DNA of 64,000 bases from Chloroflexota bacterium (lineage in GTDB: Bacteria; Chloroflexota; Anaerolineae; Anaerolineales; Villigracilaceae). Under the pieces are notes generated by a model. That model saw only the letters and a program-made list of their open reading frames with translations. It made no database searches and was not told the origin of the DNA. The position numbers and the translations under genes were made by a program. How positions within the stretch are numbered: position 1 is the first letter of the stretch; each line of letters begins with the position of its first letter. Positions 3,231 through 57,690 of the stretch are shown here, piece after piece. The DNA lies in NCBI GenBank assembly GCA_024224815.1, contig JAAENC010000726.1, forward strand, positions 3,774-67,773. Reading direction: 5' to 3'.

Positions 3231-3327
3231 GAGAACCTCACCAAGGCAGATATTTAAAGGGTCATGCTCATTATACTCTGTGTCGTTGGGAGAGTTTGTT
3301 TTCTTTGGGGTTTTTGCTTGAACAAAT

Positions 3328-3414
3328 GTGCGTCGCACCTTAAACGTACAGAATATCTCTTCGATGGAAAAAAATCATCAACAGGCATCGTCTCATCGAA
3401 GTTGGTGCGACGCA
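3328..3414. repeat. Palindromic intergenic element, GTGCGTCGCACC...GGTGCGACGCA family (copy 1 of 4)
   Basis: Arm GTGCGTCGCACC at 3328-3339 and its reverse complement at 3404-3414. An inner inverted pair CTTCGATG/CATCGAAG is also present. The same arms recur at 14066, 41806 and 59834. Confidence 0.8.
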
Positions 3415-3431
3415 TATTCTTGATTTAAAGC

Positions 3432-4094: not shown

Positions 4095-4143
4095 AATTGA
4101 GTGAATAGGAATATGAAAGCGATGCTGTACTCATAAGGTCAAA

Positions 4144-4671: not shown

Positions 4672-4723
4672 ACTAAAATTTTCTCGAACAAAAAACCTAC
4701 TGATGTAAGGAGAGAAATTCTCC

Positions 4724-6127: not shown

Positions 6128-6195
6128 TGTACTCCTTTGGGGAAGGTGAATTTGCGAGGAGGGTGTAAACCCGACGAAGCAATCTTATAGAATAA

Positions 6196-6230
6196 GAGAC
6201 CGCTTCGTCGCAAGCGCATGCTCCTCGCGG
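6196..6230. repeat. Partial copy (right half) of the nested-hairpin repeat family GAGA(C/T)TGC..CGTCGCAAG.GCATGCTCCTCGC
   Basis: gagaccgcttcgtcgcaagcgcatgctcctcgcgg closely matches 25660-25687 and 50056-50088. Confidence 0.6.
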
Positions 6231-6239
6231 AATCATTTT

Positions 6240-7945: not shown

Positions 7946-7955
7946 TGCATTTCCT

Positions 7956-10871
7956 TTATTCTTTCAATTTCTCCAGCAACGCCTCTGCCTCATCATAAGC
8001 AACCTTATAATGATGCGGTGGCCCATCATCACAATGCGCCAAATCTTTCGCTTTTTGCGCGTATTCTCTTGCCAGTTCTTTCGGCGCTTGCTCTTCACTC
8101 GTCACGCCATCACTCGTCAAAACCCCTTCTAATGCAAGTTCAGCTAGGAATAAATTAACATCCGCCCCCTGCAAAACATAGCCGCTGCGCTCGGTGATGA
8201 TGAGCGCTTCTTTCGCTAATCTTAAGGCTTCTTCGCTCTCGTTCTGTGTATAACGCAATTTAGAAACTTCAAGCAAAATATCGGCTTCATGCTCAACATT
8301 ATTGATCGCCCGGCAACGTTGAAGGCTCTCGCTGAGATGCTTTTCAGCTTTTTCTAATAGCTCGGTGGCTGAGCGCGGAGCAGTCGAAGCCATTGCCCGA
8401 TAAGATGCCCCTAGCATCCAGTGGGCGCGCACATAATCACGCTCCATTGGATATCGCGTTCTTGCCCATTCATCTGCCAATTCCAGCGCACGCTGCGCGG
8501 ATTCAGTTGCCTGTTGGCAGTATTCCCTTTTCAGTTTGGCATTATCTGTCTCACGAGCTATCAGCAGGGCGCGCAGGGAGCGGTATGCAAGAATTACACT
8601 TTGAGCTTGAACATGGTTTGATTTCTTTTTTATAGTTGCAGCAGCATCTAGCATTTCATTGCTTTCATTCCAATTACCAAGATAGATTAGCGTGTGTGCT
8701 AGAAAATATTGCCAAGTTCCAACTTTTTCTTCATCTTCAATCTCGCGGCAGAGATCAATGCTGCGGCGCAGATTGCGCTCCGCATCGCCCAGCGCGCCGA
8801 TATGGATCTGTGCCATGTATGCCACGTTCCCCAGCCCTGCGGCGAGATTTTTCTTATTACCCGCTTTTTCGTAAATATCATTGTGCATCTCAAAAAGCGG
8901 AACCGCGCGGCGCGGCTCGCCGTTCAGGGCAGAGGCATTGGCGAGGGTGTTGAGTGTCCATGCTTGAGCGCTTTCTTCCTTTAATTTTAGTGGTTTATCT
9001 TCACCACCAATAAATAAAGCTCTCATTAGCTCAATAATTTGCTGATATGCACCTAATTGAAAATACAAGGGATTTGTTAAACGATCTCTGAAGAGTTCTC
9101 TCGCTTCATCAAACTGCCCCGCTCTGACCATGTGATGATAAAGTTCTATAACGGGGGCGAGATCGTTCAGGCTGGTGATCTTTTCTTTTTCGGGTACCGC
9201 TTCAAAATAATCTTTTAAACGGTTATGGGCGGCCGTTCGGTCGGGGGCAGTTAAACGCTCGTAGGCGTAGCGGCGTACGATGGGGTGGAGATCGTATTTG
9301 TTGTCGGCTTTGTCCCAGTGTAATAAACCGCGTTCTTCGAGTTCTTTTAGTTGGTCGTCTGATTCGTCGTAGGGGCGACCCGTTTTGGTTGAATCCGATT
9401 CGCCGTTTTTAAGAGAAGGGTCGCCCTGAATATCAACGCTATCCCCATCGCTGGATGGGTCGCCCCTACCCATGATAGATTGGAGGGCTTCATAACTCGT
9501 TGGCGAGCGGAAACAAGCAATCGTACTCAGCAGTTTGGCTTCTTCGGGTGAGAGAGAGTTATAGGCAATTTCAAGAACGTGGTGTTTGTTCTGAATAATA
9601 TCTTCGGTGATATTCAATTCTCTGGCAACAGCAATATCATTTGGTTTACGGCGGTTTCCGAGAATATAGCCTGCCAAGATTCGTAAACTGAGAGGATGAT
9701 ATTGATAGGGTGTACAGGCAGATTCAATTTCAGAGCGTGTGCCGCGAATACCTTGCACTTTGAAAAAAGCGACCGCATCATCTTTGTGCATCGCGGCTAA
9801 TTCTTCTTCACGCACGCCTTGTAAAAGTTGCCCATATCGCTCCACTGCACGGGGTGTCAGGCGGGTGGACATCAAAACTTTGGAGCGCAGCATATAGCCA
9901 AAAGCGCCAATGCCCTGCAAAAAAGCATCCGCGTAGGGATTGACACAATCTCGGCTGGAGTCATTGCGATCATTATCAAGTTCATCGCCCTGATAGGCTG
10001 CGCCCATATTTCCATACGCACGCAAGACGCGCTCAAATCCATCGAGAATGAGTAAAATGCCGGGTTGTTGGAGGGCGTTGAGTAAAATATTTGTCTGCTG
10101 GCGGGGATTCATTTTGTCGGCATTGGGAACGCCGAAATCGAGCAGCGTTTCTTTCAGAAAATCATTGAAGCTTGCATCTTCTGCGTAAAAGCTCCACCAA
10201 ACAACTTTGGGCCATTTTTTAGAATCCACATCATGGGTCAGCCAATACCAAGAGAGCGCGCTTTTTCCAAATCCACCGAGGGCGCGCAAAATTAACAGGG
10301 GATGTTCTTTATCGCTATTCAGCCAGCCCGTGAGCATATTCCGCTCCGCACGGCGGCCGGTAAAATGTGCGGGCATCCCGTAAGGGTGCGCTAAAAACCA
10401 GCTTTTGGGAATTTCAGGCTCTTTTTCAGGGGGCGCAGATGTTCCGGGGGTTGGAGCTTTGGGCTTGCCGAGAGCGGTAAAAAGCTGTGACCATGCAATC
10501 TCTTCACGGTCTTCGCGAGTAAAGTCGATATAGGTAAAAATCTGTATATCTTCGGGAATTTCACATTCTTCTTTTAGTAAAGGCACAGTACGCTGTTTAC
10601 TTCCTGCGGGATCATGTAAAAAAGAGAGTAAGCCTTCGAAGGCCGTCCACTCGCTCGCCATCCATGCAGGGGTCATCACCAAAAGAGTGTAAGCACTCTC
10701 TTTAACCGCATCCCGCATATTGGCGCGTGAGGGTTTCCCCGGCACAAAATCACGAAAATCAATGCAGGCTTTAATCCCCGCATCTTCGATGGTCGGCAAA
10801 AGCGTATTCACCACCCAATCCTCGTCCGCGTGGCTGTATGAAATAAAAACATCGTATTTGTAGTCTGTCAT
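7956..10871 (-). CDS. TIR - NB-ARC (STAND P-loop NTPase) - TPR protein
   Basis: 971 aa. N-terminal DVFISYSHADEDWV...MASEWTAFE (TIR). ALGGFGKSAL (Walker A, aa 197-206). GILLILDGFE (Walker B, aa 271-280). C-terminal ~400 aa of TPR-like helical repeats. Confidence 0.85.
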   Translation of the reverse strand: MTDYKYDVFISYSHADEDWVVNTLLPTIEDAGIKACIDFRDFVPGKPSRANMRDAVKESAYTLLVMTPAWMASEWTAFEGLLSFLHDPAGSKQRTVPLLKEECEIPEDIQIFTYIDFTREDREEIAWSQLFTALGKPKAPTPGTSAPPEKEPEIPKSWFLAHPYGMPAHFTGRRAERNMLTGWLNSDKEHPLLILRALGGFGKSALSWYWLTHDVDSKKWPKVVWWSFYAEDASFNDFLKETLLDFGVPNADKMNPRQQTNILLNALQQPGILLILDGFERVLRAYGNMGAAYQGDELDNDRNDSSRDCVNPYADAFLQGIGAFGYMLRSKVLMSTRLTPRAVERYGQLLQGVREEELAAMHKDDAVAFFKVQGIRGTRSEIESACTPYQYHPLSLRILAGYILGNRRKPNDIAVARELNITEDIIQNKHHVLEIAYNSLSPEEAKLLSTIACFRSPTSYEALQSIMGRGDPSSDGDSVDIQGDPSLKNGESDSTKTGRPYDESDDQLKELEERGLLHWDKADNKYDLHPIVRRYAYERLTAPDRTAAHNRLKDYFEAVPEKEKITSLNDLAPVIELYHHMVRAGQFDEARELFRDRLTNPLYFQLGAYQQIIELMRALFIGGEDKPLKLKEESAQAWTLNTLANASALNGEPRRAVPLFEMHNDIYEKAGNKKNLAAGLGNVAYMAQIHIGALGDAERNLRRSIDLCREIEDEEKVGTWQYFLAHTLIYLGNWNESNEMLDAAATIKKKSNHVQAQSVILAYRSLRALLIARETDNAKLKREYCQQATESAQRALELADEWARTRYPMERDYVRAHWMLGASYRAMASTAPRSATELLEKAEKHLSESLQRCRAINNVEHEADILLEVSKLRYTQNESEEALRLAKEALIITERSGYVLQGADVNLFLAELALEGVLTSDGVTSEEQAPKELAREYAQKAKDLAHCDDGPPHHYKVAYDEAEALLEKLKE
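9369..9470. repeat. Palindrome-ended ~100-bp element (GTAGGGGCGACCC...GGGTCGCCCCTAC) lying in frame inside the TIR-STAND CDS
   Basis: Arms at 9369-9381 and 9457-9469, plus an internal GGGTCGCCC at 9418-9426. Encodes aa 468-501, GRGDPSSDGDSVDIQGDPSLKNGESDSTKTGRPY. A sister copy of about the same length lies at 30609-30708. Confidence 0.75.
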
Positions 10872-22601: not shown

Positions 22602-23243
22602 CTACTTTCTAGTATGAATAATCAACAAAAGCCCATTTTCAATCTCAATTTGGGCTCCTTCGGCGGTCATTTCATTGCTGATTCCGCGTGTTTGGTGAGC
22701 GTAAAGCCTTTCCTTTTGGAGAGACCAACGCAAGCCTTCAGTACGAGCAATCTGAACATCATTACCCCACGGAATTAAGGAAATGATTTCCCCGATCCGC
22801 CCGTGGATTTGGGCATGCTTCCGCGCAAAAAACACTTCATCAACCCTATCATCTGCGCGCACGTCCAACTCCGCGAGAGATTCCTTTGTCAGTAGAGATA
22901 AATTGCCGAGCGTGTGGTCAAGCCTCCCGCCCAAAGCGGCAACAAGACGAATCTTTTTGTAGCCTGCATTTACAGCATAATTAAGCGCAAGTTCCAGATC
23001 GGTTTCATCTTTATCTTTGGGGTATTTGATAATCTCAACCTGATTCTCTTCGAGGACGCGCCGATTAACGGCATCAAGTGAATCGAGATCACCGATGACG
23101 ACAGACGGTATCAAGCCCAAAGCAAGCGCGTGCCGCGTCCCGCCATCTGCAGCGATGATGAGATCATCGTCACGAATTAGTTCGCGGACGGCATCCAGAT
23201 TGGGTAAATCTCCGTTTATAAAGATAATGGCTCTATTAGACAT
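22602..23243 (-). CDS. Thiamine pyrophosphokinase
   Basis: 213 aa. IIFINGD...IAADGG...VIGDLDS...KDETDLELAL are canonical TPK motifs. Confidence 0.8.
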   Translation of the reverse strand: MSNRAIIFINGDLPNLDAVRELIRDDDLIIAADGGTRHALALGLIPSVVIGDLDSLDAVNRRVLEENQVEIIKYPKDKDETDLELALNYAVNAGYKKIRLVAALGGRLDHTLGNLSLLTKESLAELDVRADDRVDEVFFARKHAQIHGRIGEIISLIPWGNDVQIARTEGLRWSLQKERLYAHQTRGISNEMTAEGAQIEIENGLLLIIHTRK

Positions 23244-23285: not shown

Positions 23286-23323
23286 TTAAAGGAAAACATC
23301 CTCGCCATGGGGAGGATGTTTTT
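23286..23323 (-). terminator. Probable riboswitch expression-platform terminator
   Basis: Minus-strand RNA AAAACAUCCUCCCCAUGGCGAGGAUGUUUUCCUUU: an 8-11 bp stem followed by a U-rich tract, immediately 3' of the THI-box aptamer. Confidence 0.6.
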
Positions 23324-23336
23324 AGTAAAGGCAAAT

Positions 23337-23437
23337 TCCCTCCGCTGGCATTATCCAGATCAGGTTATGCGGGTCGAGCGGTTACGCTCCTCTCAGCCAT
23401 TGTCGCATCACAAAGCGGATGCTTACAAGGCTCCCCG
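23337..23437 (-). promoter_or_regulatory. TPP (THI-box) riboswitch
   Basis: The reverse complement reads CGGGGAGCC...GGCUGAGAGGAGCG...ACCCGCAUAACCUGAUCUGGAUAAUGCCAGCGGAGGGA. It contains the invariant CUGAGA and ACCUGAUCUGGAUAAUGCCAGCG elements. Confidence 0.9.
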
Positions 23438-23511
23438 TTCAAATGTGTAGTCAATTTACCTTATTGGGTAATCCTTGTCAAATCTAATAAAAGTTAAAGT
23501 ATAATGTTGCC

Positions 23512-37176: not shown

Positions 37177-37276
37177 TCCGCAAAACAGAGATTTTAAACG
37201 CCTGGAGTTATTTATGCAGAGTGGAGTTAAATTTTGAATATCAATGCATCAAAGACAAAATCATAAAATTGGTTGG

Positions 37277-38197
37277 ATGATAAAAAAAGGAAGTATTAAG
37301 AAAAACAATAGGATAACTGAGATTATTGCAATCAGTATTCTGATGTTGTTAATCAGTGCCTGTAGCTTGAGTAGAGGGGAAGCAACGTCACAAGAGGCTC
37401 CAGATACAAGAAACTGTAACTGCCAAAGCCTGGATATTACCAAGATCATGCTACGCCCTCCTGATTGGGAATATGATTTTGAAAACGGCTGGAATGCTGA
37501 ATATGGAAAAGGGGATCTCTCCCAACGAAATACTCAAGCTCTTGCCTGGAGATATAGCCAAATGCAGACATCCAGTGCTGGAGAAGTAATGCCTGATCCA
37601 AAAAATGCCAACAACTCAGTGATGAGGTTTCTCTGGCAAAGGGGAAAGGGGCAACAATATGATACAAATACGCAAAAGAAGGCACACCTATATGGGGCTT
37701 TTGGGGAGCATAATATACAAAAAGAGGTGTGGAGTCTGGATTTGTACTTTCCCTCAGCAGAGATGCCGTCTGACAAAGAACCAGAGATTTTGATCCAATG
37801 GCATGGGGTACCAGATAACTGCGAACTCCCTCGTAATCCCCCTATTGCATTAGCAAACCAGCAAGATCGGCTTTCAGTGACTTGGCGATGTGATCAGAAA
37901 AATTGTACGCCCTGGGGTTTTAAACGTTGGGATGCGGGTTGGAAAGACCTTGGAGAAACCCCCAAGGATCAGTGGGTTAACTTCGTATTTGCTATCCAAT
38001 GGGATCCCTTTGGGTGTGGAGTCTTGGAAATATGGCAAGATGGCAATAGAATTCTTGATGAAAAGGAGATTCCTTTGGGCTTCAATGATACACTAGGCGC
38101 TTATCTTGGCTTCGGGATTTATAAATATACCCTGACCTCAGAAAGCCAATATAGGACAATCTACTTTGATAATGTAAAGCAATGGATAGTTCCTTAA
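37277..38197 (+). CDS. Secreted lipoprotein, possibly concanavalin-like/polysaccharide-lyase fold
   Basis: MIKKGSIKKNNRITEIIAISILMLLISAC lipobox (alternative start 37244). ILIQWHGVPD and IYFDNV are reminiscent of Polysacc_lyase-type domains. Weak call. Confidence 0.4.
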   Translation: MIKKGSIKKNNRITEIIAISILMLLISACSLSRGEATSQEAPDTRNCNCQSLDITKIMLRPPDWEYDFENGWNAEYGKGDLSQRNTQALAWRYSQMQTSSAGEVMPDPKNANNSVMRFLWQRGKGQQYDTNTQKKAHLYGAFGEHNIQKEVWSLDLYFPSAEMPSDKEPEILIQWHGVPDNCELPRNPPIALANQQDRLSVTWRCDQKNCTPWGFKRWDAGWKDLGETPKDQWVNFVFAIQWDPFGCGVLEIWQDGNRILDEKEIPLGFNDTLGAYLGFGIYKYTLTSESQYRTIYFDNVKQWIVP

Positions 38198-38341
38198 AGA
38201 GTGTGTTTAGTATCTAACCTAAAAAAAAATGGAGTTCTTCCTCAATAGATTTTAAGGCAAAGATACTCGATTTTTTCGCTGTGAAAAGAAATAAAAGAAA
38301 AACAAAAAACAGCCCTTGCCGAAGAACACCATAAACATTCC

Positions 38342-38437
38342 AAGCTTAAACCTTCAACATGAAACATCTAACCCTAAAAGAAGTCCGAAGCTGGTACGAA
38401 GCTACCGATGCCGTTCACGATTTTGACCATATTATCC
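38342..38437 (+). pseudogene. Duplicated 5' fragment (upstream leader plus first 26 codons) of the HD-hydrolase gene at 40342
   Basis: AAGCTTAAACC...ATGAAACATCTAACCCTAAAAGAAGTCCGAAGCTGGTACGAAGCTACCGATGCCGTTCACGATTTTGACCATATTATCC aligns with 40301-40420. After 38437 the similarity stops and the frame terminates after 45 codons. Confidence 0.8.
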
Positions 38438-38450
38438 ATATATTGGGTTT

Positions 38451-39344
38451 ATGCTCAGAATCAATAACGAAAATTACTGGGACTTTTCCCCAATAGAGAT
38501 GAGAAAATTCGTATTTATTTTTGGCACTATAGCATTGTTGTTTTTGTGTACACTAAATCAAATTATTGAATTAGCATTCAGCGAAGAGTTTATTCAATTT
38601 CTTGAAAAAGTGTTTTCTCCAGATGGTGTTATAAGTTGCCCGACATGTATTTTTCAGAGTATAAATAAACACATAATTTGTGTGAGCGCAATCTGGATGA
38701 TAATATTTCTTGATAAGCAGGGTTTCGACAGGTTTTGCTTATATAACTTGAGCTCAAAAATGAAGTTAGCATATATAGCTACGCTTCTTTTTATCATATC
38801 GTGGGTGTTTTTTCGAGACCAGGAGTTATATAGAGAAGATGATTTTTTTGAGCAATTAACGACTATATTATTTTTGTGTACGTCAATTATTTTTACCCTG
38901 AAATTATTCAGGGCTGGTAAATTGAATCGCAGATATTTATTTTTTGGGGCCGTGTTTTTCTTTATTATTACGATGGAGGAGATTAGCTGGGGGCAAAGAG
39001 TTATAAACTGGGAAACACCTGATTTATGGAAAGTTATAAATTATCAAGATGAGACCAATTTTCATAATTTATTTAATCCTGTTTTGCAGTATTTTTATAT
39101 GGCGGGAACTTTGTTTTTAGGATATATCTTCTACTCGATAGGTACTTTGAAAAGCATTTTTTCACGTTTTACTTGGATGGGTAATATATCCCATCTTCTT
39201 CCATCAATTGAGTATTCACTTTTTAGTTTCGTATTCTTTTTCCTGAGTTTACAACACTCAGCACCTTATGGAGGAGAATTAATCGAGGGGGTATTCTCTT
39301 TGTTCGGAGTTATATATGCTACTGATATATACCTGAAAGACTGA
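38451..39344 (+). CDS. Hypothetical polytopic membrane protein (very AT-rich)
   Basis: 297 aa, about 8 TM. Conserved-looking ITMEEISWGQRV loop. No family recognised. Start uncertain (no clear RBS). Confidence 0.55.
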   Translation: MLRINNENYWDFSPIEMRKFVFIFGTIALLFLCTLNQIIELAFSEEFIQFLEKVFSPDGVISCPTCIFQSINKHIICVSAIWMIIFLDKQGFDRFCLYNLSSKMKLAYIATLLFIISWVFFRDQELYREDDFFEQLTTILFLCTSIIFTLKLFRAGKLNRRYLFFGAVFFFIITMEEISWGQRVINWETPDLWKVINYQDETNFHNLFNPVLQYFYMAGTLFLGYIFYSIGTLKSIFSRFTWMGNISHLLPSIEYSLFSFVFFFLSLQHSAPYGGELIEGVFSLFGVIYATDIYLKD

Positions 39345-39371
39345 TACGTAATCTATAATAATAAAACGCAT

Positions 39372-39430
39372 GGCTTGAAACTAACCCTAAAAGAAGCCTC
39401 TAAATGATATGAAGGCACCATATTGTTCAC
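39372..39430 (+). pseudogene. Second, degenerate remnant of the HD-gene 5' region
   Basis: GGCTTGAAAC-TAACCCTAAAAGAAGCC...GAAGGCACCATATTGTTCAC aligns with AAGCTTAAAC...TAACCCTAAAAGAAGCC...GAAGATACCGATGCTGTTCAC, with many substitutions, a deleted start codon and an in-frame stop. Confidence 0.45.
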
Positions 39431-39514
39431 TGTTTGTGTACGATAATGATGCGCGGAAGCCCGCGTGAGAAGCAGGTTCTACTATCAACCATTTCCTTAC
39501 AGGAGACAGATTAT

Positions 39515-40276
39515 ATGAATTCACCAAATAAAATTGCACTCATAGCCGCAATCCTTTACACAGCTTTTATTGGATTTGGCATGTACTATATGAAGAATAT
39601 CAATCTCACGACTTATGGTAAGCCTGAAATGGTGAATACCCTATGGTGGGTTGAGATTGTTTTAACGGCGATCACCCTTTATGTTGTGATTAAATTTTTC
39701 AGTTGGAAGGAAGTCGGCTTTCGTAAAATTAATCTTAAGCAATTGGGCTGGCTTCTTCCAAGTTTTTTGCTGTTGGCTCTAATGGCTTACCAGTTTTTGT
39801 TGGCGTCAGCCTCTACTCCTCTGGATCCGGCCCAAAAGAAGCTACTCGCGTTATTGGCATTTACAACATTTCTAGTTGGGTTCTCCGAAGAGATTATGTA
39901 TAGGGGCATTGTTTTACACGCTTTTCGTGCGAAACAACCGATCCTCGTGGCAATGTTGATAAGCGCTATCGCTTTTTCTTTGCTTCATGCCGTTAATATA
40001 TTTGGAGGTATATCACTAGCTAGCGTCGGGGGGCAACTTCTCTTGACTTTCTTGTTTGGCTTCTTCTTTGCGCCGTTGATGGTTAAGATTAACAATATTT
40101 GGCCTCTAATCATTTTCCATTGGTTATGGGACTTTATTCTTATTGGGGCTCCTGTTGTTGGCGCAGATGTGTCGATAGGCGTTGCGAGTAGTTTAATCTC
40201 TTTGATTTTTGGTAGTCTTTTATGGTTTAGCGTAAAGAGAGAAGAAAGCGGGAATGCACCGGCTTCAGTTGATTGA
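39515..40276 (+). CDS. CPBP-family intramembrane glutamic endopeptidase (CAAX protease/immunity-type)
   Basis: ATG at 39515 preceded by AGGAGA. EEIMYRG (EExxxR) and FSLLHA (FxxxH) motifs. About 7 TM. Confidence 0.75.
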   Translation: MNSPNKIALIAAILYTAFIGFGMYYMKNINLTTYGKPEMVNTLWWVEIVLTAITLYVVIKFFSWKEVGFRKINLKQLGWLLPSFLLLALMAYQFLLASASTPLDPAQKKLLALLAFTTFLVGFSEEIMYRGIVLHAFRAKQPILVAMLISAIAFSLLHAVNIFGGISLASVGGQLLLTFLFGFFFAPLMVKINNIWPLIIFHWLWDFILIGAPVVGADVSIGVASSLISLIFGSLLWFSVKREESGNAPASVD

Positions 40277-48405: not shown

Positions 48406-49941
48406 ATGAAAAAAATATTTTTAATCTCAATTTTGATATCCATATTTGTCGCATCCTGCACGAGCGGAACACCGACATCCTCCGTTTCGAACGTGGAACC
48501 TGAACTTGCTCCCACTATAGAAACTGAGTCTCAGCCCGAGCCTGATCCCACTAAAGCCCCCGTTTTAGAAGAAGCCGTTCTTTATCAGGCCGGCGATACA
48601 ATATCCCATTTTGACGGCACCACACTTGTTTATATCCCGGCAGGTGAATTCACAATGGGCGTTGAAAAAGGCGAAGATAACCCCAAGACAGCAGCTTCAA
48701 CAGATGAGTTTTGGATCTATTCAACCGAAGTTACCAACGCCCAATACGCTCAATGTGTCGCAACAGGGGAATGCTCTCTGCCTGATATTGCTAATAATCC
48801 AAATTACGCTGAGACATTTTTCGCATCTCATCCTGTAAGCGGTGTTAGTCACACGCAAGCCCAAGCCTATTGTGGCTGGGTAAATGGACGCCTGCCCTCT
48901 GAAATAGAGTGGGAGAAAACCGCTCGCGGCCCCGAATCAGATATCTATCCTTGGGGGGAGGCAGCACCTACCTGTAACGAAGCTAACTTTGCCGACTGTG
49001 AGGAAGGCAGAAGCACAAATGTGATTTCGCATCCTGATGGACGTTCTTTTTACGATGCTTACGATATGGCAGGAAATGTCTTTGAGTGGGTAGAAGATCG
49101 GTATGCTGCCGATGCTTATATTAATGGGCAAGCTACAGAGGGCGAAGAACGAGTTCTTCGTGGTGGTTCATTTGCATCTTCTACAGAAGAATTGCTTGCC
49201 TACCAACGCTTTTCTGCCAAAGCAGAAGAAAGTCGAAACGATTTAGGTTTCCGTTGTGTAGTTGATGAGCCAGATTATTTTGCACCGATGTGTGTGCAGG
49301 CCCCAATTCAGCAGGGGCACTCTTCTCAAGATTTTGACCTAAACTGTCCTGTGCCCGATATAAAGCAAACATCTCAATACTGCCATAATGGGAAGCCATA
49401 TATTAATATCGAGATTAACTATACCCTAGGTCAGTTTGTAGATTTTGATGTGAGTCCTTATAAAGGATGTACCATAATTGGAGAGCCCGGGAATACTGGT
49501 TTTGCAAAATATGCTTGCTGGGGTGATCAAGAACTTGTGCCCGTGAGTCTTAGTATTTCTCAGGACTGTGTTGCAGGTGAATTGAACCCAACTTGCGGAG
49601 AAGGTTATGAATTTGACCTACAAAGCCAAACCTGTGTTTATAAAGGTGAAGGAGAAAATAAAAATAGCAACCAATGTCCGGTTGGGTATGCCTTTGACTC
49701 AGAGACTCAGTGTTGTAGTACGGCAGAAAAAGAATCATATTCCGTTTCTTGCCCACCAGGATATTATTTGCCCCAATGGAACGGAGAAATTATGGGAAGT
49801 ACATGTTTCACAATGATCGAATCTCATACTTCAGGCATTGGCTATGGGAGTTGTACAATTAAAGATAAGCCAGATGATGGTGATGGTGATGGTGGCGGTG
49901 ATGAATGTGTCCCCGATGCCACTGGTGGCGGATGTCCTTAG
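48406..49941 (+). CDS. Formylglycine-generating-enzyme (SUMF1/EgtB/PvdO) family lipoprotein with Cys-rich C-terminal extension
   Basis: Lipobox FVASC. YCGWVNGRLPSEIEWEKTARG...YPWG...NVFEWVED...RVLRGGSF. C-terminal ~220 aa contain many Cys. Confidence 0.75.
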   Translation: MKKIFLISILISIFVASCTSGTPTSSVSNVEPELAPTIETESQPEPDPTKAPVLEEAVLYQAGDTISHFDGTTLVYIPAGEFTMGVEKGEDNPKTAASTDEFWIYSTEVTNAQYAQCVATGECSLPDIANNPNYAETFFASHPVSGVSHTQAQAYCGWVNGRLPSEIEWEKTARGPESDIYPWGEAAPTCNEANFADCEEGRSTNVISHPDGRSFYDAYDMAGNVFEWVEDRYAADAYINGQATEGEERVLRGGSFASSTEELLAYQRFSAKAEESRNDLGFRCVVDEPDYFAPMCVQAPIQQGHSSQDFDLNCPVPDIKQTSQYCHNGKPYINIEINYTLGQFVDFDVSPYKGCTIIGEPGNTGFAKYACWGDQELVPVSLSISQDCVAGELNPTCGEGYEFDLQSQTCVYKGEGENKNSNQCPVGYAFDSETQCCSTAEKESYSVSCPPGYYLPQWNGEIMGSTCFTMIESHTSGIGYGSCTIKDKPDDGDGDGGGDECVPDATGGGCP

Positions 49942-50160: not shown

Positions 50161-52605
50161 TTATATATCTTTATTTTGTTCTGCTAATCCCTCTGAGACA
50201 GCCCAGGAAACAGCTTCTGTGCGGTTTTTGGCCCCCAACTTTTTAAGGATGCTGCTAACGTGTTTTTCTACTGTTTTCAGCACAACAACCAGGGTTTCTG
50301 CAATTTCATCGTTGCTTTTCCCTTGAGCCAGTTGAAGCAGCACATCACGCTCACGCGCAGTGAGCAAGTTTTGGGCCAAGTTCGATGCGGATGAAGATTT
50401 CTGTATAAGGCATTTTTCGAGGATAAAGTTTATTGTTTCATCCAGTGTTTGCGTGTTTCCCTTTTCCCATTCTGTATCGTAAATAGCTTTGCCAAGTCTG
50501 GCGCGAGTGCTAAGTATGGCTTTTTCATAGCCATACCAAATATGGGTACTATGAATCTTTTTATGTTCTTGTTTTAGTGCGTCTATTGCTCCAAAAAGGT
50601 GAGCTGTAGATGAGTATTTTTTTGTTAAAAAACATAAACGGGCGGCATTTTGAAAATTCCCAATGAAAAGGTCTTTGTCTATCTGCTCTATATTTAGGGA
50701 GAGTGCTTTTTGAAGTGATGTGGATGCATGCTTAAGATTCTTTTGTTCAAGCATAATGTGAGCTTGAGAGATCAGAGCCCAAGTTAGTATCTGTGAAAAT
50801 TGAAACTCTTGAGCAAGGTGAATAGCCTGCTCATTTAGCTCGAAAGCTTCTTCTATTTCACCTTTTTCAAAAAGTTCTTCTGCTAATCGAGAACTTGAGG
50901 CTGCGATAAGGTAGGGATTGTTATTTTTCTTGGCAAATTTCAATGCGTGTTCAGCGTGATATAGATTGAAAGCACTATTGCTTAATAACTGGTACTGGTC
51001 ACTTAAATTATAGTGTGAGCGTGCTTGCCCCCAATCATCTTTGAGTTTTTGGTATAAGGCCAGGCTTTGTTCACAGAGATCGCGCGCTTTCTGGGAATTA
51101 CCACTCAGCCCTAAACATACACCGATGTTATTTAATGTGAATGCAATTTTGCTCTCATCTCCAAGATGTTGATATAGCTCGAGGCTTTTCTGATGGAATT
51201 TACGCGCTCTTTCTAAATCTGCTCTTAGCCAAGAATGAGTTCCGACTATGCTATAGACATTGGCTTTCACCGTTAAGAAATCTTTTTTTTCAGAGTCGAT
51301 TTTTTCAATATCTAAAAGAGCACGCTCAGAGAATGTAATTAATTCATTGAAATAGGCGCGGATCATCCAGTATTGTTCCAGATATGAGAGAATCCAAAAT
51401 CCATTTAGCCAAAGCGTTGAAATAGGGGCAGCAATTAGGCTGATTTCCATTGCAAGGACGATATTGGCGTATTCAAGGTCGATGGTTTTCAGCCAGCTTA
51501 TTTGCTCTCTCCCTTCTAAGCCCATCGCTGCATTTTTTGAAAGCTCTAGATACAACTCAACATAAGCTTCTTTGATGATTGATAGTTCTTTTGCATTGCG
51601 AAGCTCGTTCCAGCAGAATTCACGGATCGATTCGAGCATAAAGAAACGGGTGCTGTCAGCTTCTTCAAAAGAAGGTTTGACCAGACTTTTGTCTACCAAG
51701 GAGGAGATCAGGTCTATAGCCTGAATTTCGTCGATATTCATTAAGGTAGAAAGTGTTTCTATGCTAAAGGTAGAGGGAAAAACAGATGCATATCTTAGTG
51801 CGCGCTGTTCGCTTGAATCTAAGAGGCTATAACTCCATGCGATCATTTTGCGTAGGGATTGCTGGCGTTCGGGCAAATCTTTTGTTCCAGCTGAGAAGAG
51901 GTCTAACATACGGGTAGCAGGTTCAATATCCGGTTTGAGACGATCAAGAAGTCTTTGCGGGGTAAAAAGTTTTGTGCGGAGGGCGGCTAATTCTACGGCC
52001 AGAGGTAATCCATCTAATCGGTGGCAAAGTTTTTTTATCGCTTTGTTCTCTTTTTCTGATGTGTTGAGATCGGGTTTTACTGCCAAAGCACGTTGCATAA
52101 ATAGTTCTACAGCAGCACTCGAAGAAAGAGACTTAACGGGGTATAGCTGCTCAATGCGCAACTGCAAAGGCTCTCGGCTGGTGACAATAATTTGGAGATC
52201 AGGTAAGGTTTGAAGCAATTCATTAACCTGTGATGCGCCGTCCATGATATGCTCAAAATTATCTAAAATAAGCAGAAGTTTTTTTGCCGAAAGGGACTCT
52301 TTAATATTCTCAAGGGTGCTTTTTTGTGCATCTTGTTTAATTTTGAGCGTATGTGCGATCTCGAGGAGTATTCTCTCACTTTGGGTGAGAGGAGCCAGGT
52401 TAACAAAAAACACACCATCAGGATATTTTTCCAGGCGTGATGATGCAAAATGTATAGCGAGGGTTGTTTTACCGATACCACCTAAGCCCGTTAGCGTGAG
52501 TAAGCGAAGAATATCTTTTGCAAATAATTGTTGCAAAAATTTTATGTCTTCTTCGCGTCCAATGATATTGCTGTGGCTATAGGGCAGGTTAGAAAACTTT
52601 TCCAT
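50161..52605 (-). CDS. LuxR-family regulator with N-terminal STAND/NB-ARC-type ATPase and TPR region (LAL/MalT-like)
   Basis: GLGGIGKTTLA Walker A, LLLILDNFEH Walker B, TPR-like middle, C-terminal LTARERDVLLQLAQGKSNDEIAETL...VEKHVSSILKKLG HTH. I prefer the ATG at 52605; the track start at 52632 is TTG. Confidence 0.8.
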   Translation of the reverse strand: MEKFSNLPYSHSNIIGREEDIKFLQQLFAKDILRLLTLTGLGGIGKTTLAIHFASSRLEKYPDGVFFVNLAPLTQSERILLEIAHTLKIKQDAQKSTLENIKESLSAKKLLLILDNFEHIMDGASQVNELLQTLPDLQIIVTSREPLQLRIEQLYPVKSLSSSAAVELFMQRALAVKPDLNTSEKENKAIKKLCHRLDGLPLAVELAALRTKLFTPQRLLDRLKPDIEPATRMLDLFSAGTKDLPERQQSLRKMIAWSYSLLDSSEQRALRYASVFPSTFSIETLSTLMNIDEIQAIDLISSLVDKSLVKPSFEEADSTRFFMLESIREFCWNELRNAKELSIIKEAYVELYLELSKNAAMGLEGREQISWLKTIDLEYANIVLAMEISLIAAPISTLWLNGFWILSYLEQYWMIRAYFNELITFSERALLDIEKIDSEKKDFLTVKANVYSIVGTHSWLRADLERARKFHQKSLELYQHLGDESKIAFTLNNIGVCLGLSGNSQKARDLCEQSLALYQKLKDDWGQARSHYNLSDQYQLLSNSAFNLYHAEHALKFAKKNNNPYLIAASSSRLAEELFEKGEIEEAFELNEQAIHLAQEFQFSQILTWALISQAHIMLEQKNLKHASTSLQKALSLNIEQIDKDLFIGNFQNAARLCFLTKKYSSTAHLFGAIDALKQEHKKIHSTHIWYGYEKAILSTRARLGKAIYDTEWEKGNTQTLDETINFILEKCLIQKSSSASNLAQNLLTARERDVLLQLAQGKSNDEIAETLVVVLKTVEKHVSSILKKLGAKNRTEAVSWAVSEGLAEQNKDI

Positions 52606-52690
52606 CAGAAAATTATAGCAGGGAAAGACCAAATTAGACCAAAATGGTATACTAATCTTTCGCGTTTTTGCGAAGAAAATAAAACAAATG

Positions 52691-52699
52691 TGCTATAAT
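52691..52699 (+). promoter_or_regulatory. Extended -10 element TGCTATAAT upstream of uvrA
   Basis: Exact TGnTATAAT about 50 nt upstream of the uvrA ATG. I recognised no LexA-type palindrome nearby. Confidence 0.35.
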
Positions 52700-52748
52700 T
52701 CTCTTTCACCTTTTGCACATAATTTCTCTATATTTCAAAGGTTTTCCT

Positions 52749-55628
52749 ATGGCTCAAAACGTAATTCGCGTGGTTGGCGCGCGTGTTCATAATCTTAAAA
52801 ATATCACCGTTGAGATTCCGCGTGATAAGTTTGTTGTCATCACCGGTCTCTCCGGTTCCGGCAAATCATCCCTCGCTTTTGATACGATTTTCGCCGAAGG
52901 TCAGCGACGTTATGTAGAGTCGCTTTCGGCTTATGCACGGCAATTTATCGGGCAGATGGATAAGCCGGATGTTGACTATATTGACGGTTTATCTCCCGCT
53001 GTTTCGATTGACCAAAAATCCACATCGCATAATCCCCGCTCAACGGTGGGAACGGTAACGGAGATTTACGATTATCTACGTCTGCTTTATGCGCGGGTTG
53101 GGATTCCGCATTGCCCCGAATGTGGGCGGGAAGTCGTCAAACAATCGGCGCAAGAAATAGTGGATAAAGTCGAAACGCTCCCGGATGGAAGCAGGATACT
53201 GGTTCTCGCACCTTTAGTCCGTGCCCGAAAAGGGACTTACCAAGCCGTTTTCGAAGAGATTCGCAAGGCCGGTTTTGCACGTGTTCGTGTAGATGGCGAT
53301 GTCCGCTCATTGGATGAAGAATTTGACCTTGATCGCTATAAAATCCACACCATCGAAGCTGTTGTAGATCGGCTTATTATTCGCCATCACGAAGATGAAG
53401 AAGAGAGACAAGCTGCGCTTTCACGATTAACAGATTCTATCGAAACAGCACTCAAATTTGGCGATGGATATATGACCGTTGCACTTACGCCTCGTGAAGG
53501 CGAAGGCCACGATATTCACTATTCCGAACATCTCGCTTGCCCGGAGCATGGAACAAGCATCTCCGAAATTGCGCCGCGTACTTTTTCCTTTAACACTCCG
53601 CACGGCGCGTGTCCTACTTGTGAAGGGTTGGGCCATAAACTCGAAATTGACCCCGATCTGCTCATCACAAATAAAGACCTTTCGCTTAATGGTGGTGCAA
53701 TTGGCGCATCCGAATGGAGCGGCCCGCGCGAAGAGGGTGGTTATTATTGGCAGACTCTTGATGCCGCCGCGCAGCACTATAAAATCGATCTTGATAAACC
53801 GGCGAATAAATTAACAGAAGAAGAGTTAGAAATTATTCTCTACGGCAGCAAAGGCGAAGAATTTACGATTGTTTATCAGAACGCAAAAGGGAATGAATAT
53901 ACTTTTCAGCGCTCTTTTGAAGGCGTAATTGGCAATCTCGAACGCCGTTATAGAGAAACCAGCTCAGAATATATGCGCAAACGCATCGACGAATTTATGT
54001 CGCAGAAAGCTTGCCCCGAATGTGGCGGCGCGCGTCTGCGAAAAGAAGCCATCGCGGTCACCATCGCCGATAAAAATATCATCGAGATTACCACGCTTCC
54101 CGTCGCCGATGCGTTGGCGTGGGCAGAAACTTTGCACGATATTCTGAATGCCCGAGACAAGATCATTGCCGAACGCGTGATGAAAGAAATTCAGGCACGG
54201 CTCGGATTTTTGGTGAATGTTGGGCTTGATTATCTGACGATCAATCGCTCGGCGGGAAGTTTGTCTGGCGGCGAAGCGCAGCGAATCCGTTTGGCAACGC
54301 AGGTTGGCTCACGGCTCGTTGGCGTGCTTTATGTTTTGGATGAACCCTCCATTGGATTGCATCCGCGCGATAATATGCGATTGCTGAAAACGCTCGAAGG
54401 TCTGCGAGATTTGGGGAATACCGTCCTTGTCGTTGAGCATGATGACGAAACCATAATGACTGCCGATTGGATACTTGATCTCGGCCCCCGCGCTGGTGAA
54501 CATGGTGGTGAAATTGTGGCAGAAGGCACGCCGGAGGCGATTTTAGCGCATCCCAAGTCTCTGACCGGGGCATATCTCTCTAAACGGATGCAAGTGCCGG
54601 TCCCGAGCGAACGTAGAAATGGGAATGGTAAAAAACTGACGGTAGTCGGTGCTCGGGCAAATAATCTTAAGAATATCGATATAGACATCCCCCTGGGAAG
54701 ATTGGTTTGTATCACGGGTGTGTCAGGTTCAGGCAAATCGACGTTGATGGGCGATATTCTCTATCAGTCTTTGGCGAAAACCTTAAACCGCGCACGGACG
54801 CTGCCCGCCGAACATGATGAAATTTTGGGCGTGGAGCATCTGGATAAGATTATCAATATCAATCAGTCGCCAATTGGGCGCACGCCGCGCTCGAACCCGG
54901 GGACCTATACGGGGCTTTTTGATGAGATGCGTAAACTTTTTGCGCAGTTGCCAGAGAGCAAAGTGCGCGGCTATAAGCCCGGGCGTTTTTCTTTCAATGT
55001 GCATGGCGGGCGTTGTGAGGCTTGCTCCGGGCAGGGACAATTGCGGATCGAGATGCAATTTTTGCCTGATGTTTATGTGCCTTGCGATGTTTGCCACGGT
55101 TCGCGTTTCAATCGGGAAACTTTGCAGGTGAAATACCGCAATGAATTCAGCATCGCCGATATTTTGGATATGCCGATTGACCGCGCTGCTGAGATTTTTA
55201 AAGATTTCCCGAAGATGATCAAAAAGCTCGATGTATTGAACGAAGTCGGGCTGGGATATATCCGTGTGGGGCAATCTGCGCCGACGCTTTCGGGCGGCGA
55301 AGCGCAGCGCGTGAAATTGGCGAAGGAACTTTCCAAACGCTCTACAGGGCGCACACTTTATGTACTCGATGAACCATCCGTTGGTTTGCACGCGGCCGAT
55401 GTGCACAAACTGATCGAAGTCCTGCAACGTCTTGTGGAAGGTGGAAATTCGGTGCTGATCATTGAGCATAATGCCGACATCATCAAAACTGCAGACTGGA
55501 TTATCGACTTAGGCCCCGAAGGCGGTGATAAAGGCGGTACACTGGTCGCGGCAGGTACGCCGGAAGAGATTTGTGATGTGAAAGAGTCTTATACTGGGGA
55601 TTTCTTGAAGGATTATTTGGGGGAATAG
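52749..55628 (+). CDS. uvrA: Excinuclease ABC subunit A
   Basis: [19 protein letters not shown]...[14 protein letters not shown], two ABC modules, zinc-finger Cys clusters. ATG at 52749; the track start is TTG at 52713. Confidence 0.95.
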
Positions 55629-55651: not shown

Positions 55652-55688
55652 GAAGGCTGACGGTGATGCTGTCAGCCTTCTTTTTTAT
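55652..55688 (+). terminator. Intrinsic terminator of uvrA
   Basis: GAAGGCTGAC, 9-nt loop, GTCAGCCTTC, followed by TTTTTTAT. Confidence 0.8.
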
Positions 55689-55740: not shown

Positions 55741-56466
55741 TTATGCTCCGACAAAGGCACCTCTGCGTGGCATCTGACTCCAAATTTTCCCTTGCAACTC
55801 TCTTCCTGCCTTTTTCTTTTGTACACCACCCCATTGCTTGAAGAAAAAAGGAGTTTGAGATTCAATACATTGGTCTCGAATTTCAGTTACCCATTCTTCT
55901 TTTATCGGTCTTGATTTTGGGCCTGATTCTCCACCTACAATTGCCCAGTCAATACCGTCTAAGTTCAGATTTGGGAGAGAACCCAGCAAAGGCTCAAGGG
56001 ATAGAAATTTCGTCTTTGCATCTGTTTTTCGTAAATAATCAATACGGTAGGCATAATCGTTATTTTCTACGCTAACACCCATCCAGATATTGTCAGCCCA
56101 CTTAAGTTGTGGGTTTAGTTCAGCCAAACGTTCCGCGCGTTTTGTTAGTATCTGAAATTTATGCCAGTGTGCTTCTCGCATTACTTTAAAAATGGATTGA
56201 ATGAATTCCACGGAAACGTCTTTATGAAAAAGGTCGCTCATGGAATTGACAAAGATAGTTTGCGGCTTTTTCCATTTTAGCGGATCTGCCACAACTTGTG
56301 GATGTTCTGTCAGTTCAAATTCATTTATATATTTTTTTTGCCCCATTGCTTTTAATCGCTTTGACATTCTTTCAGCGTAACAATTTTTACAACCAGGACT
56401 AACTTTTGTACATCCCGTGAGGGGGTTCCAAGTGGATTCTGTCCATTCTATGGTTGAGTTTGACAT
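55741..56466 (-). CDS. Phage Gp37/Gp68-family (DUF5131) three-Cys-motif protein
   Basis: 241 aa. [27 protein letters not shown] (C-x6-C-x2-C), with later [10 protein letters not shown] and SLEPLLG, matches my memory of PF07505 members. Confidence 0.75.
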
Positions 56467-56528
56467 AAGTTGCTCCGTTATCTGAAATCTCTCTTAAATA
56501 ATAGCTCGTTTGTTCTTTTTTGTCCATG

Positions 56529-57395
56529 TTACAGCAATCTTCTTTGACCATTTATATCAACTTGCGTCCCTTGTTTCCAAAATTTGTGTCCTAATTTATG
56601 TTTACTGGCAAAAACAAGTCTGTATAAAGGCGCATTAGTTTGAGCTGTTTTCATAAGGGGTTCTGGAGAATCTATGTCAACATATCCTAATGCCTTTAAT
56701 TTATCTTGGTAGTAATCCATAAGTTCACGATGCAACCCTTTCTTTGAAGATTTGTATTGCCATGTTTTATAGATTTGTCTCCAACCTTCATCTCCAAAAA
56801 ACTTATCAATTATAGTTTCATCGGTAGAAGCATAACAACGGTCAAGGTTTCTTGTAAGCCCGCTTTGGGAATAATGAATGACCATATCCATTATTTTGAT
56901 TTGCGCTAAAGCTTCTACAGTTCTCCATTCCAACTCCAAACCATCTGGGTCAAGAAAAACTAAATTGAACGAGGGCCATTTACCTGAGATGAATTTTTTA
57001 TCAGCGATCTGAAGTTCTCTTACAATTTCTTTAACTTTTTCGTTTGCATCTCCAACATAAAACTTCTTCTGAAGCGGCAATGACGAACTTCGTTCTCGAA
57101 GAATGTCAATATTCTTTTCAATATAATCCACAAAATAATAATGAGTAAATGGGTGCTGTGTAGTTAATGCTAACAATGGAGAACCTAAATGAATATCATT
57201 TGTGCCTTTCAACTCAAACTTTCCTGTCCCTGAGAACATATCAATATAGCTGCGTTGTCTCCAAGGCTTGCCGCGCATAGATGTCGCAGATTGAGAGATA
57301 TATTTTTTCAAATACTCCACTTTTTGGATTGTCCATTTTCCAAATTCTCTGGTTGGCAATCCATCATCTTCCGGTAGCAGATATTTATTTTTCAT
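56529..57395 (-). CDS. tcmP: Three-Cys-motif partner protein TcmP-like (methyltransferase-like fold)
   Basis: 288 aa. N-terminal WTIQKVEYLKKYISQ, then YIDMFSGTG (SAM-motif-I-like) and VFLDPDGLELEW. Lies immediately upstream of the DUF5131 gene. RBS GGGAG. Confidence 0.65.
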   Translation of the reverse strand: MKNKYLLPEDDGLPTREFGKWTIQKVEYLKKYISQSATSMRGKPWRQRSYIDMFSGTGKFELKGTNDIHLGSPLLALTTQHPFTHYYFVDYIEKNIDILRERSSSLPLQKKFYVGDANEKVKEIVRELQIADKKFISGKWPSFNLVFLDPDGLELEWRTVEALAQIKIMDMVIHYSQSGLTRNLDRCYASTDETIIDKFFGDEGWRQIYKTWQYKSSKKGLHRELMDYYQDKLKALGYVDIDSPEPLMKTAQTNAPLYRLVFASKHKLGHKFWKQGTQVDINGQRRLL

Positions 57396-57603: not shown

Positions 57604-57650
57604 TGAACGGAAAAGTTGGTAAACTTCGCTTTCAACAAAAAAGAGAAAAC
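57604..57650 (+). repeat. 47-nt conserved sequence (copy 1; 44/47 identical to 61702-61748)
   Basis: ACAATGCATCTGAACGGAAAAGTTGGTAAACTTCGCTTTCAACAAAA versus ACAATGCGTCTGAACAGAAAAGTTGGTAAACTTCACTTTCAACAAAA. Confidence 0.85.
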
Positions 57651-57656
57651 CTGACA

Positions 57657-57690
57657 GGTCTCCAAGACCTGTCAGGTTTTATGATTTATA
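57657..57690 (+). terminator. Strong hairpin with U tract (AAAACCTGACAGGTC-TCCAA-GACCTGTCAGGTTTT)
   Basis: 14-15 bp perfect stem followed by TTTTAT. The arms share the CCTGACAGGT core with 23251-23283. Confidence 0.6.

Follow-up and report, generated by a model that had tools for sequence, protein, structure and literature searches.

Introduction

Genes for three-Cys-motif partner proteins (TcmP; TIGR04474 in TIGRFAMs) and for DUF5131 (Gp37/Gp68) proteins have stood as a pair in sequence databases since about 2012. Here we examine one such pair, located in a 64 000-nt stretch of DNA (hereafter the window) from the metagenome-assembled genome of a Chloroflexota bacterium of the family Villigracilaceae (assembly GCA_024224815.1, contig JAAENC010000726.1, positions 3774–67 773 of the forward strand). 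Its closest catalogued counterparts are the PADLOC-DB candidate systems PDC-M41 and PDC-M30, both components of which are matched by the two adjacent, co-directional window genes (PDC-M41A, TcmP, E 3.6e-29; PDC-M41B, DUF5131, E 4.7e-123; PDC-M30A, E 8e-9; PDC-M30B, E 6e-119). Nothing distinguishes the window pair from these candidates, which are unvalidated and whose description does not extend to the SOS operator, the partner swaps with spore photoproduct lyase (SPL) and the gene fusions reported below. In the literature searched, TcmP and PDC-M30 are named only in gene or system lists, and the work on radical S-adenosylmethionine (SAM) proteins in connection with SPL, restriction–modification (R-M) or defense deals with Ophion, HXS and the SplB-SOS link, none of it with the TcmP/DUF5131 pair. 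The window locus is one more member of a catalogued, uncharacterized family and not a new kind of system.

Further described systems resemble parts of the pair. SPL (SplB) and other COG1533 enzymes ("DNA repair photolyase") give the best structural TM-score to a model of the DUF5131 protein, fill the same slot beside or fused with TcmP, and share with DUF5131 a link to DNA damage. They differ in the Cys motif (C-x3-C-x2-C in SPL, C-x6-C-x2-C in the window protein), and SPL acts alone, needing no methyltransferase-fold partner, unlike DUF5131. The "radical SAM mobile pair" A/B (TIGR04471/TIGR04470) is also a mobile two-gene cassette. DUF5131 aligns to its protein A over 196 residues, and TIGR04470 weakly matches one TcmP partner (locus L083); the second protein of that cassette is another radical-SAM protein, whereas in the window pair it has a methyltransferase fold. 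Among validated defense systems, prokaryotic viperins, Ophion OpnA and HXS place a radical-SAM effector in a mobile defense locus, as we propose here. They belong to an unrelated radical-SAM lineage, act on free nucleotides or mature a peptide effector, and have neither a TcmP-like partner nor a LexA operator.

We propose that the pair encodes a mobile, DNA-damage-licensed, two-subunit radical-SAM enzyme that acts on nucleic acid, most probably DNA, with a damage-triggered role against phages or other mobile elements as its likeliest function; the probability of this reading is, in our estimate, about 0.4. The argument combines partner exchange, gene fusions and a conserved promoter with a LexA-type operator between the two genes.

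Gene pair and predicted subunits

A preliminary description of the locus had noted two co-directional genes 62 nt apart and convergent with uvrA, and the coordinates bear this out (Table 1). Profile searches agreed with both of its family assignments. The DUF5131 protein matched PF07505 (residues 3–233 on model positions 1–243 of 243; E 1.3e-101, 339.7 bits, cutoff 28.9) and has at least 8000 relatives at E ≤0.001. Identity was at least ~68% among the best 120 matches, and an alignment of 115 homologues contained 93 invariant columns. Because these comprise the three clustered Cys, already seen in the preliminary description, and 90 other positions, the Cys motif is no chance feature. The triad (C19, C26 and C29, spaced C-x6-C-x2-C) follows the first beta strand(s) of the AlphaFold2 (AF2) model, which is built of repeated beta/alpha units (mean predicted local distance difference test (pLDDT) 86.7); conserved polar residues lie at the strand ends (NSMSD 74–78, TKR 108–110, SVE 132–134, EP 158–159, GGESGP 178–183). 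In canonical radical-SAM proteins, a CxxxCxxC triad in the loop after beta-1 binds a [4Fe-4S] cluster.

The best TM-scores of the DUF5131 model were to SPL (0.51–0.53, probability 0.90–0.97, with weak E-values of 0.016–0.07), followed by MiaB, NifB and plain TIM barrels (E-values overall 0.005–0.07), and among the viral structures of BFVD the model matched phage radical-SAM and GP88 proteins. The sequence aligned to TIGR04471 (rSAM_mob_pairA) with E 3.2e-25 and 88.9 bits, below the family cutoff of 355 bits, and corresponds to phrog_2045 in PHROGs, where its function is given as unknown. RadicalSAM.org/SFLD treats DUF5131 as a radical-SAM subgroup (Megacluster-5-2) beside SPL (5-3; PMC9477430). 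From motif, model and classification, the DUF5131 protein is predicted to be a radical-SAM-type catalytic subunit. The preliminary description had likewise read the triad as radical-SAM-like, a view further strengthened by the canonical CxxxCxxC enzymes that accompany TcmP elsewhere.

TcmP matched TIGR04474 (residues 20–275 on model positions 1–257 of 263; E 4.5e-46, 157.9 bits, cutoff 53) and no Pfam family; the profile recovered 4877 cluster representatives at E ≤0.001 among 1.84 billion proteins. The AF2 model (pLDDT 93.7, predicted TM-score (pTM) 0.91) assigns it a class I (Rossmann) SAM-methyltransferase fold. In Foldseek searches of the Protein Data Bank (PDB), the top matches were RlmJ and a DUF519 protein (E 3e-7, TM 0.43–0.52), with TYW2 and RlmCD also among the best; 105 PDB entries matched at E ≤0.001, and those listed are all class I methyltransferases. 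The fold had been anticipated from YIDMFSGTG (50–58) and VFLDPDG (146–152), both present in the translation. Motif I (YIDMFSGTGK, 50–59) reads Y-I-D-L-F-A-G-x-G-K across 120 homologues, among which D52, G56, G58, K59, N118, D149 and G152 are invariant; PLYRLVFASK (256–265) is conserved as well. In the motif IV-like element (LDPDG, 148–152), the invariant D149-P-x-G152, with D, E, T or P at the variable residue, stands where amino-methyltransferases have (D/N/S)PP(Y/F). A search for the catalytic form (D/N/S)PP(Y/F/W) found an invariant Gly at the aromatic position. The SAM site looks intact, with Gly in place of the base-stacking aromatic, and TcmP may be a SAM binder but not an N-methyltransferase.

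RlmJ, the 23S rRNA m6A2030 methyltransferase (DUF519), is the closest solved fold (probability 1.0) and shares with TcmP the gamma-type motif order, a D-x-x-x-G-x-G SAM loop and a subsequent DP-x-x motif IV. Identity is only 13–14%, and TcmP has no sequence-level match to the PDB or Pfam. RlmJ is, moreover, a core gene without a partner, and it has a stacking aromatic in motif IV (DPSY) where TcmP has the invariant Gly of DP[D/E]G. PDB sequence and profile searches with both window proteins returned nothing meaningful (nanobody noise and one repeat protein). DUF5131 (~70% identity) is much more conserved than TcmP (~55%), a contrast that would fit a catalytic core joined to a faster-evolving recognition subunit.

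RNA is a possible substrate because TcmP's closest fold relative methylates rRNA. The pair could act on rRNA or tRNA in a housekeeping or toxin-like capacity, TcmP in the manner of RlmJ and the radical-SAM subunit in that of MiaB or TYW1, and the TcmP matches to RlmJ, TYW2 and RlmCD, the resemblance of DUF5131 to MiaB, and three loci within a glyQS-dnaG-rpoD operon agree with this. We nevertheless regard RNA modification as very improbable: mobility, AT-richness, pseudogenes and a sporadic distribution are unlike a housekeeping role, the partners that replace DUF5131 are of the SPL type, which acts on DNA, and both the winged helix-turn-helix (wHTH) of long TcmP forms and the SOS control point to DNA.

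Table 1. Features of the TcmP/DUF5131 locus and its borders (window coordinates)
Feature	Position	Strand	Description
DUF5131 (Gp37/Gp68) gene	55741–56466	minus	241 aa; PF07505 profile match
tcmP	56529–57395	minus	288 aa; TIGR04474 profile match
Sigma-70-type promoter (putative)	56498–56526	minus	-35 TGGACA (56526–56521), 17-nt spacer, -10 TATTAT (56503–56498); scan 10/12
LexA-type (Cheo-box-like) operator (predicted) AGAACAAACGAGCT	56503–56516	minus	between -35 and -10; 24.5 bits (position weight matrix (PWM) from 42 spacers)
uvrA	52713–55628	plus	convergent with the tcmP/DUF5131 pair
Inverted repeat GAAGGCTGAC / GTCAGCCTTC	55652–55680		10 bp; followed by TTTTTT on the plus strand
Hairpin AAAACCTGACAGGTCT-loop-AGACCTGTCAGGTTTT	57646–57680		perfect 16-bp stem, 3-nt loop; 250 nt upstream of tcmP

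Partner exchange and fusions

A genome scan covering one genome per species, with peptide patterns taken from Chloroflexi sequences and so biased towards Chloroflexi, returned 164 TcmP relatives. Most came from Anaerolineae and other Chloroflexota, with distant relatives in Zixibacteria, Binatia, Desulfobacteraceae, Planctomycetota, Gammaproteobacteria, Nealsonbacteria, Armatimonadetes and Ignavibacteria. In 57 loci with a spacer that could be measured, the next gene downstream of TcmP was DUF5131; the median spacer of 62 nt equals the gap in the window (56467–56528).

Elsewhere TcmP keeps other company. Its partner is a 348-aa SPL-like protein with CPFDCSWC in locus L077 (TIGR04070, E 1.6e-24) and a Radical_SAM protein in L083 (PF04055, E 3e-9), and an SPL-like protein with CGFGCRAC is encoded directly upstream of TcmP in L082. 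The two can also be one chain: locus L078 encodes a 634-aa fusion (7911–9815, plus strand) of an N-terminal TcmP and a C-terminal SPL domain with CPYDCAWC (PF20903, E 4.8e-13), 40 nt downstream of a 1388-aa Type IIG-like gene, and fusions of ~630 aa (proteins P0241–P0360) account for at least 60 clusters covering the full length. A ~700-aa form, found among others in a Methanophagales archaeon, adds a "GMT-like wHTH" domain (PF22560), and TcmP of Gordonia phage also carries a "GMT-like winged HTH" domain. The fusions are labelled "spore photoproduct lyase" or "TcmP" by their sources.

Fusions and partner swaps are the strongest argument that TcmP would work physically with a radical-SAM enzyme. 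Since TcmP is elsewhere paired or fused with canonical SPL-type radical-SAM enzymes, DUF5131 appears to fill the radical-SAM slot, which argues for a functional equivalent of an SPL-type enzyme. DNA is the probable substrate, because SPL acts on DNA and the winged HTH is a DNA-binding fold.

Spacer promoter and operator

The spacer between the genes holds a candidate sigma-70-type promoter overlapped by a LexA-type operator, which, like the PADLOC listing, goes beyond the preliminary description. A regular expression recovered the spacer consensus TAGAACATTTGTGCTATTAT in 42 of the 57 spacers, and the consensus version of the operator is AGAACATTTGTGC. AGAAC-N4-GTGC-TAnnAT is present in about 51 spacers and the same promoter architecture in about 50 related loci: TGCTAnnAT provides an extended -10, preceded 17 nt upstream by a -35-like hexamer that comes partly from the tcmP stop codon. 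The spacers of L054, L066 and L073 contain a perfect GAAC-N4-GTTC. GAAC-N4-GTTC is the LexA box of Gram-positive bacteria (PMC3323433).

A GAAC-N4-GTTC box has reportedly also been demonstrated in Dehalococcoides, which belongs to the Chloroflexi. In the window copy (AGAACAAACGAGC) the first half-site, GAAC, is intact, and the second, GAGC, departs from the GTGC or GTTC of the family consensus, which presumably makes this copy the weaker. The promoter and the first half-site are also retained in the two closest relatives of the window copy; with GAGC or GAAC as the second half, repression may be weaker in this clade.

When the PWM was run over 981 kb, comprising the window and every locus retrieved, 58 sites scored as hits, ~52 of them in TcmP–DUF5131 spacers; hits outside tandem spacers were at the window uvrA promoter, at a divergent promoter pair in L044 and at both genes of the convergent pair in L067. 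The uvrA promoter carries an operator/-10 composite (52680–52699, plus strand; TAAAACAAATGTGCTATAAT) that scored 25.4 bits with the spacer matrix, and uvrA of the window genome is predicted to be LexA-regulated. The motif is not just the form that promoters generally take in this genome, as only one of the 26 extended -10-like sites (TGnTAnnAT) in the window, that of uvrA, has a GAAC-like half-site. A metagenome scan for AGAACNNNNGTGCTATNAT yielded 80 loci. The genes immediately following the motif included recA (three times), those for a Y-family (IMS) polymerase, a DinB-family protein, an AlkZ-related glycosylase and a resolvase, and, in one case, DUF5131 with TcmP upstream. Three recA genes among 80 loci are far beyond chance. 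The spacer motif is thus predicted to be a LexA-type operator that makes the radical-SAM gene of the Chloroflexi pairs SOS-inducible from its own promoter, and tcmP in the tandem arrangement is predicted to lie outside SOS control.

Two further leads were dropped. GAAC-N4-GTGC at 3320–3331, ~90 nt upstream of a large lipoprotein-like open reading frame (ORF), is at chance level (3 found, 2.9 expected). In L076, a metagenome-assembled genome of Binatia, a LexA homologue (2178–2783, plus strand; 44% identical to LexA of B. subtilis) lies 1.3 kb downstream of an orphan TcmP, just upstream of which the contig ends; we judged this proximity a coincidence. The L044 hit (2444–2478) is a palindromic LexA-type site with a -10 on either side, between the gene of a large serine recombinase (557 aa) and a divergent gene with a SocA/Panacea domain; ~5.5 kb from the TcmP pair of that locus, it suggests an SOS-controlled mobile element.

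Because the spacer operator ties a radical-SAM gene to the DNA-damage response, an accessory role in DNA repair is a serious rival to defense. TcmP would flip out a damaged or wrongly alkylated base and the SOS-induced radical-SAM subunit would reverse the lesion, giving an oxygen-independent counterpart of photolyase- or AlkB-type direct reversal that would be useful to anaerobic Anaerolineae. The operator itself speaks for this, as does the recurrence of its motif at uvrA and recA promoters; so do the interchangeable partners from the SPL/COG1533 "DNA repair photolyase" family, the very strong conservation of the catalytic subunit, as expected for a universal substrate, and the earlier link of SplB-like enzymes to SOS operons (PMC3765255). 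The window copy abuts uvrA, the pair in L010 abuts genes for a UvrD/PcrA helicase and a NUDIX protein, and an unpaired DUF5131 gene of mycobacteriophage Sbash sits in a replication/recombination module. Repair genes, however, are not what is enriched around the pair (R-M, TIR and toxin–antitoxin genes are), the adjacency to uvrA is kept in no relative, and the operator precedes the radical-SAM gene only and not tcmP. The patchy, AT-rich, island-like distribution with pseudogenes and a position in temperate phages typical of conflict genes also count against repair. Taken by itself we consider the repair role rather unlikely, and it is nearly as likely as a conflict role.

Mobility and genomic company

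The preliminary description had proposed a horizontally acquired anti-phage or DNA-modification module. Its mobility part is supported. In the window the pair is AT-richer than uvrA, as had been noted by eye (GC 0.377 versus 0.494, and 0.453 for the whole window), and ranks 25th lowest in GC among 624 sliding windows; at 51 of 52 loci the pair has a lower GC content than the flanking DNA, the mean difference being 9.6 points. Flanks differ even among relatives whose TcmP is 74–82% identical to that of the window. One of these lies between MFS transporter and cytochrome bc genes and another between NUDIX and ThsB-TIR genes, and upstream DNA cannot be aligned beyond the ribosome-binding site of tcmP, where homology between the window and its closest relatives ends. 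The pair is disrupted in four loci (L009, L066, L084, L085). Identical copies of the window pair occur in GCA_024449705.1 and GCA_024449935.1. The anti-phage or modification part has fared less well, as it rests on neighborhood and on PADLOC candidate status.

The company of the pair, with neighbor genes called by a simple ORF finder, is rich in conflict genes. TIR-domain proteins adjoin it in at least six loci, often fused to an FGE-sulfatase or beta-propeller domain, with related proteins carrying a kinase in place of TIR; toxin–antitoxin genes and a serine recombinase are also found nearby. Multidomain neighbors recur in L009, L013, L018, L019, L022, L023 and L029, with a TIR or Ser/Thr kinase domain at the N-terminus and an FGE-sulfatase domain or PD40 beta-propeller at the C-terminus; one also has a VWA domain.

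A co-directional gene lies ≤200 nt upstream in 43 of 78 loci. Among 42 such neighbors scanned, nine were N6-adenine methylases (Type I, IIG or ISP) and three rpoD; the methylase genes, at gaps of 21–131 nt, suggest co-transcription with tcmP. These neighbors, the adenine-N6-methylase-like fold of TcmP and the wHTH domain of some TcmP proteins are what would be expected if the pair marked its own host, installing or elaborating a DNA base modification (e.g. on N6-methyladenine) as an R-M partner or as protection from restriction. Such self-marking seems improbable to us. LexA should not keep a constitutive mark off, most loci, the window included, have no R-M gene nearby, TcmP lacks a target-recognition domain, and no partner nuclease travels with the pair.

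Phages carry the family too, with DUF5131 in 181 of 50 697 phage records. In phages of Gordonia and Synechococcus, a TcmP gene faces it in convergent orientation (TIGR04474 E 6.5e-55 and 2.5e-51 in Gordonia phages, where the genes are annotated as "methyltransferase" or "hypothetical protein") between the integrase and the immunity repressor, the slot of lysogen-expressed genes. Because mycobacteriophage copies are unpaired (Sbash gp69, L213), the DUF5131 family is broader than the TcmP pair. Sbash and 55 other Mycobacterium phage records have a DUF5131 protein of ~325 aa whose gene, without a TcmP neighbor, stands among RusA, RNase H, DNA methyltransferase and HNH genes.

At the edges of the window pair, no flanking direct or inverted repeats of note were found that could be mobile-element ends. 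The strong hairpin that the preliminary description placed on the far side of the pair is indeed there (-25.5 kcal/mol, z = -5.9; none of 200 shuffles equalled its folding). With a run of T after it on the minus strand, it resembles an intrinsic terminator and would probably insulate the pair from upstream transcription; it is not conserved in the closest relatives, L003 and L010, where upstream regions are unrelated. On the other side, the 10-bp inverted repeat is a putative uvrA terminator and the apparent downstream boundary of the inserted pair.

Proposed function

How might a mobile, damage-licensed enzyme of this kind work? TcmP, a SAM-binding protein of RlmJ-like fold, would find the target and flip a base out of the helix; the Gly in its motif IV, where adenine-N6 methylases stack an aromatic, would leave an open pocket. 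The C-x6-C-x2-C triad of DUF5131 would hold a [4Fe-4S] cluster and cleave SAM to a 5'-deoxyadenosyl radical, with which the subunit would abstract hydrogen from the base or sugar thus exposed, in a manner similar to SPL. TcmP would be made constitutively, often through read-through from the upstream gene, and the radical-SAM gene would be transcribed from its own promoter. Because that promoter is overlapped by a LexA operator (partly degenerate in the window), the complete enzyme would form only after DNA damage.

The pair's mobility and company lead us to judge a conflict role the most likely. The AT-rich, island-like setting among R-M, TIR and prophage genes and the PADLOC candidate status favor conflict; accessory repair draws its support from the SOS operator, the partners of the SPL family and a connection with DNA metabolism.

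Several results weigh against the damage-triggered enzyme proposed here. The literature searched contained only passing mentions of any pair member and no biochemical or functional study, consistent with the preliminary statement that the pair has no published function. The window DUF5131 protein was not matched by Pfam Radical_SAM (PF04055, E up to 0.1) or by the SPL family models PF20903 and TIGR04070, and the E-values of its structural matches to SPL are weak. An hhalign comparison of DUF5131 with three SPL-like TcmP partners also found no relation (probability 0.9%), with inputs low in diversity (effective number of sequences (Neff) 1.7 for the 115-sequence DUF5131 alignment, and the three partner sequences). 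As this profile comparison was negative, the link between DUF5131 and SPL is functional and structural and not a demonstrable sequence homology. The nearest fold relative of TcmP methylates rRNA. As to regulation, the second half-site of the window operator is degenerate, no LexA box beyond chance was found upstream of the Gordonia phage DUF5131 gene, and repair genes are more typically under SOS control than immune genes. As to context, the neighbors of the window pair (an NB-ARC/TPR LuxR-type regulator, uvrA, a membrane protein with an HTH_3 regulator, LtrA and an SDR) are housekeeping and not defense genes. In three Chloroflexi species (L011, L015, L024; about 1000–10300 in each), the pair lies 23–37 nt downstream of rpoD, in a glyQS-dnaG-rpoD block before nuoA, which looks like a stable chromosomal position.

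A more specific form of the proposal, which we hold to be doubtful, is a new kind of DNA enzyme, in which the subunit with the methyltransferase fold would turn a base out of duplex DNA and pass it, for radical chemistry, to a LexA-gated radical-SAM subunit with a non-canonical C-x6-C-x2-C triad.

Other features of the window

The gene divergent from uvrA (50161–52632, minus strand) encodes the 823-aa regulator, which combines an NB-ARC/STAND ATPase with TPR and a LuxR-type HTH; its promoter (TGCTATAAT at 52620, minus strand) has no LexA-like half-site. An FGE-sulfatase protein is encoded at 48406–49941. The most AT-rich part of the window, at 37800–39800 (GC down to 0.346, below the TcmP pair), holds an ORF with a polysaccharide-lyase domain (37244–38197) and a 297-aa ORF without a Pfam match (38451–39344), and may be another acquired segment. 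A TPP riboswitch (RF00059, 66.4 bits) at 23319–23447 (minus strand) lies upstream of a minus-strand ORF (22602–23243). An open frame of at least 1124 aa (2–3374, minus strand), without a sequence relative in the PDB, extends past the left window boundary; its probable start, near 3230, has a lipoprotein-like signal (…LSLIFSAC…).

Implications

DUF5131 is a radical-SAM subgroup without a known reaction. If the proposed chemistry is correct, it would be the second DNA-directed radical-SAM reaction after that of SPL, and it would reveal either an immune mechanism or an anaerobic repair pathway of a new type. Should the doubtful base-handover scheme hold, the pair could be an immune effector using radical chemistry to attack or edit invading DNA upon damage signals, the first of its kind, or, alternatively, a system for oxygen-independent direct-reversal repair of base damage (e.g. 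aberrant methylation) that has spread horizontally among anaerobes. The natural TcmP–SPL fusions (e.g. P0241) offer a single-chain version suited to biochemistry and, together with the SOS wiring and the SPL partner swaps, make the function of this family directly testable.

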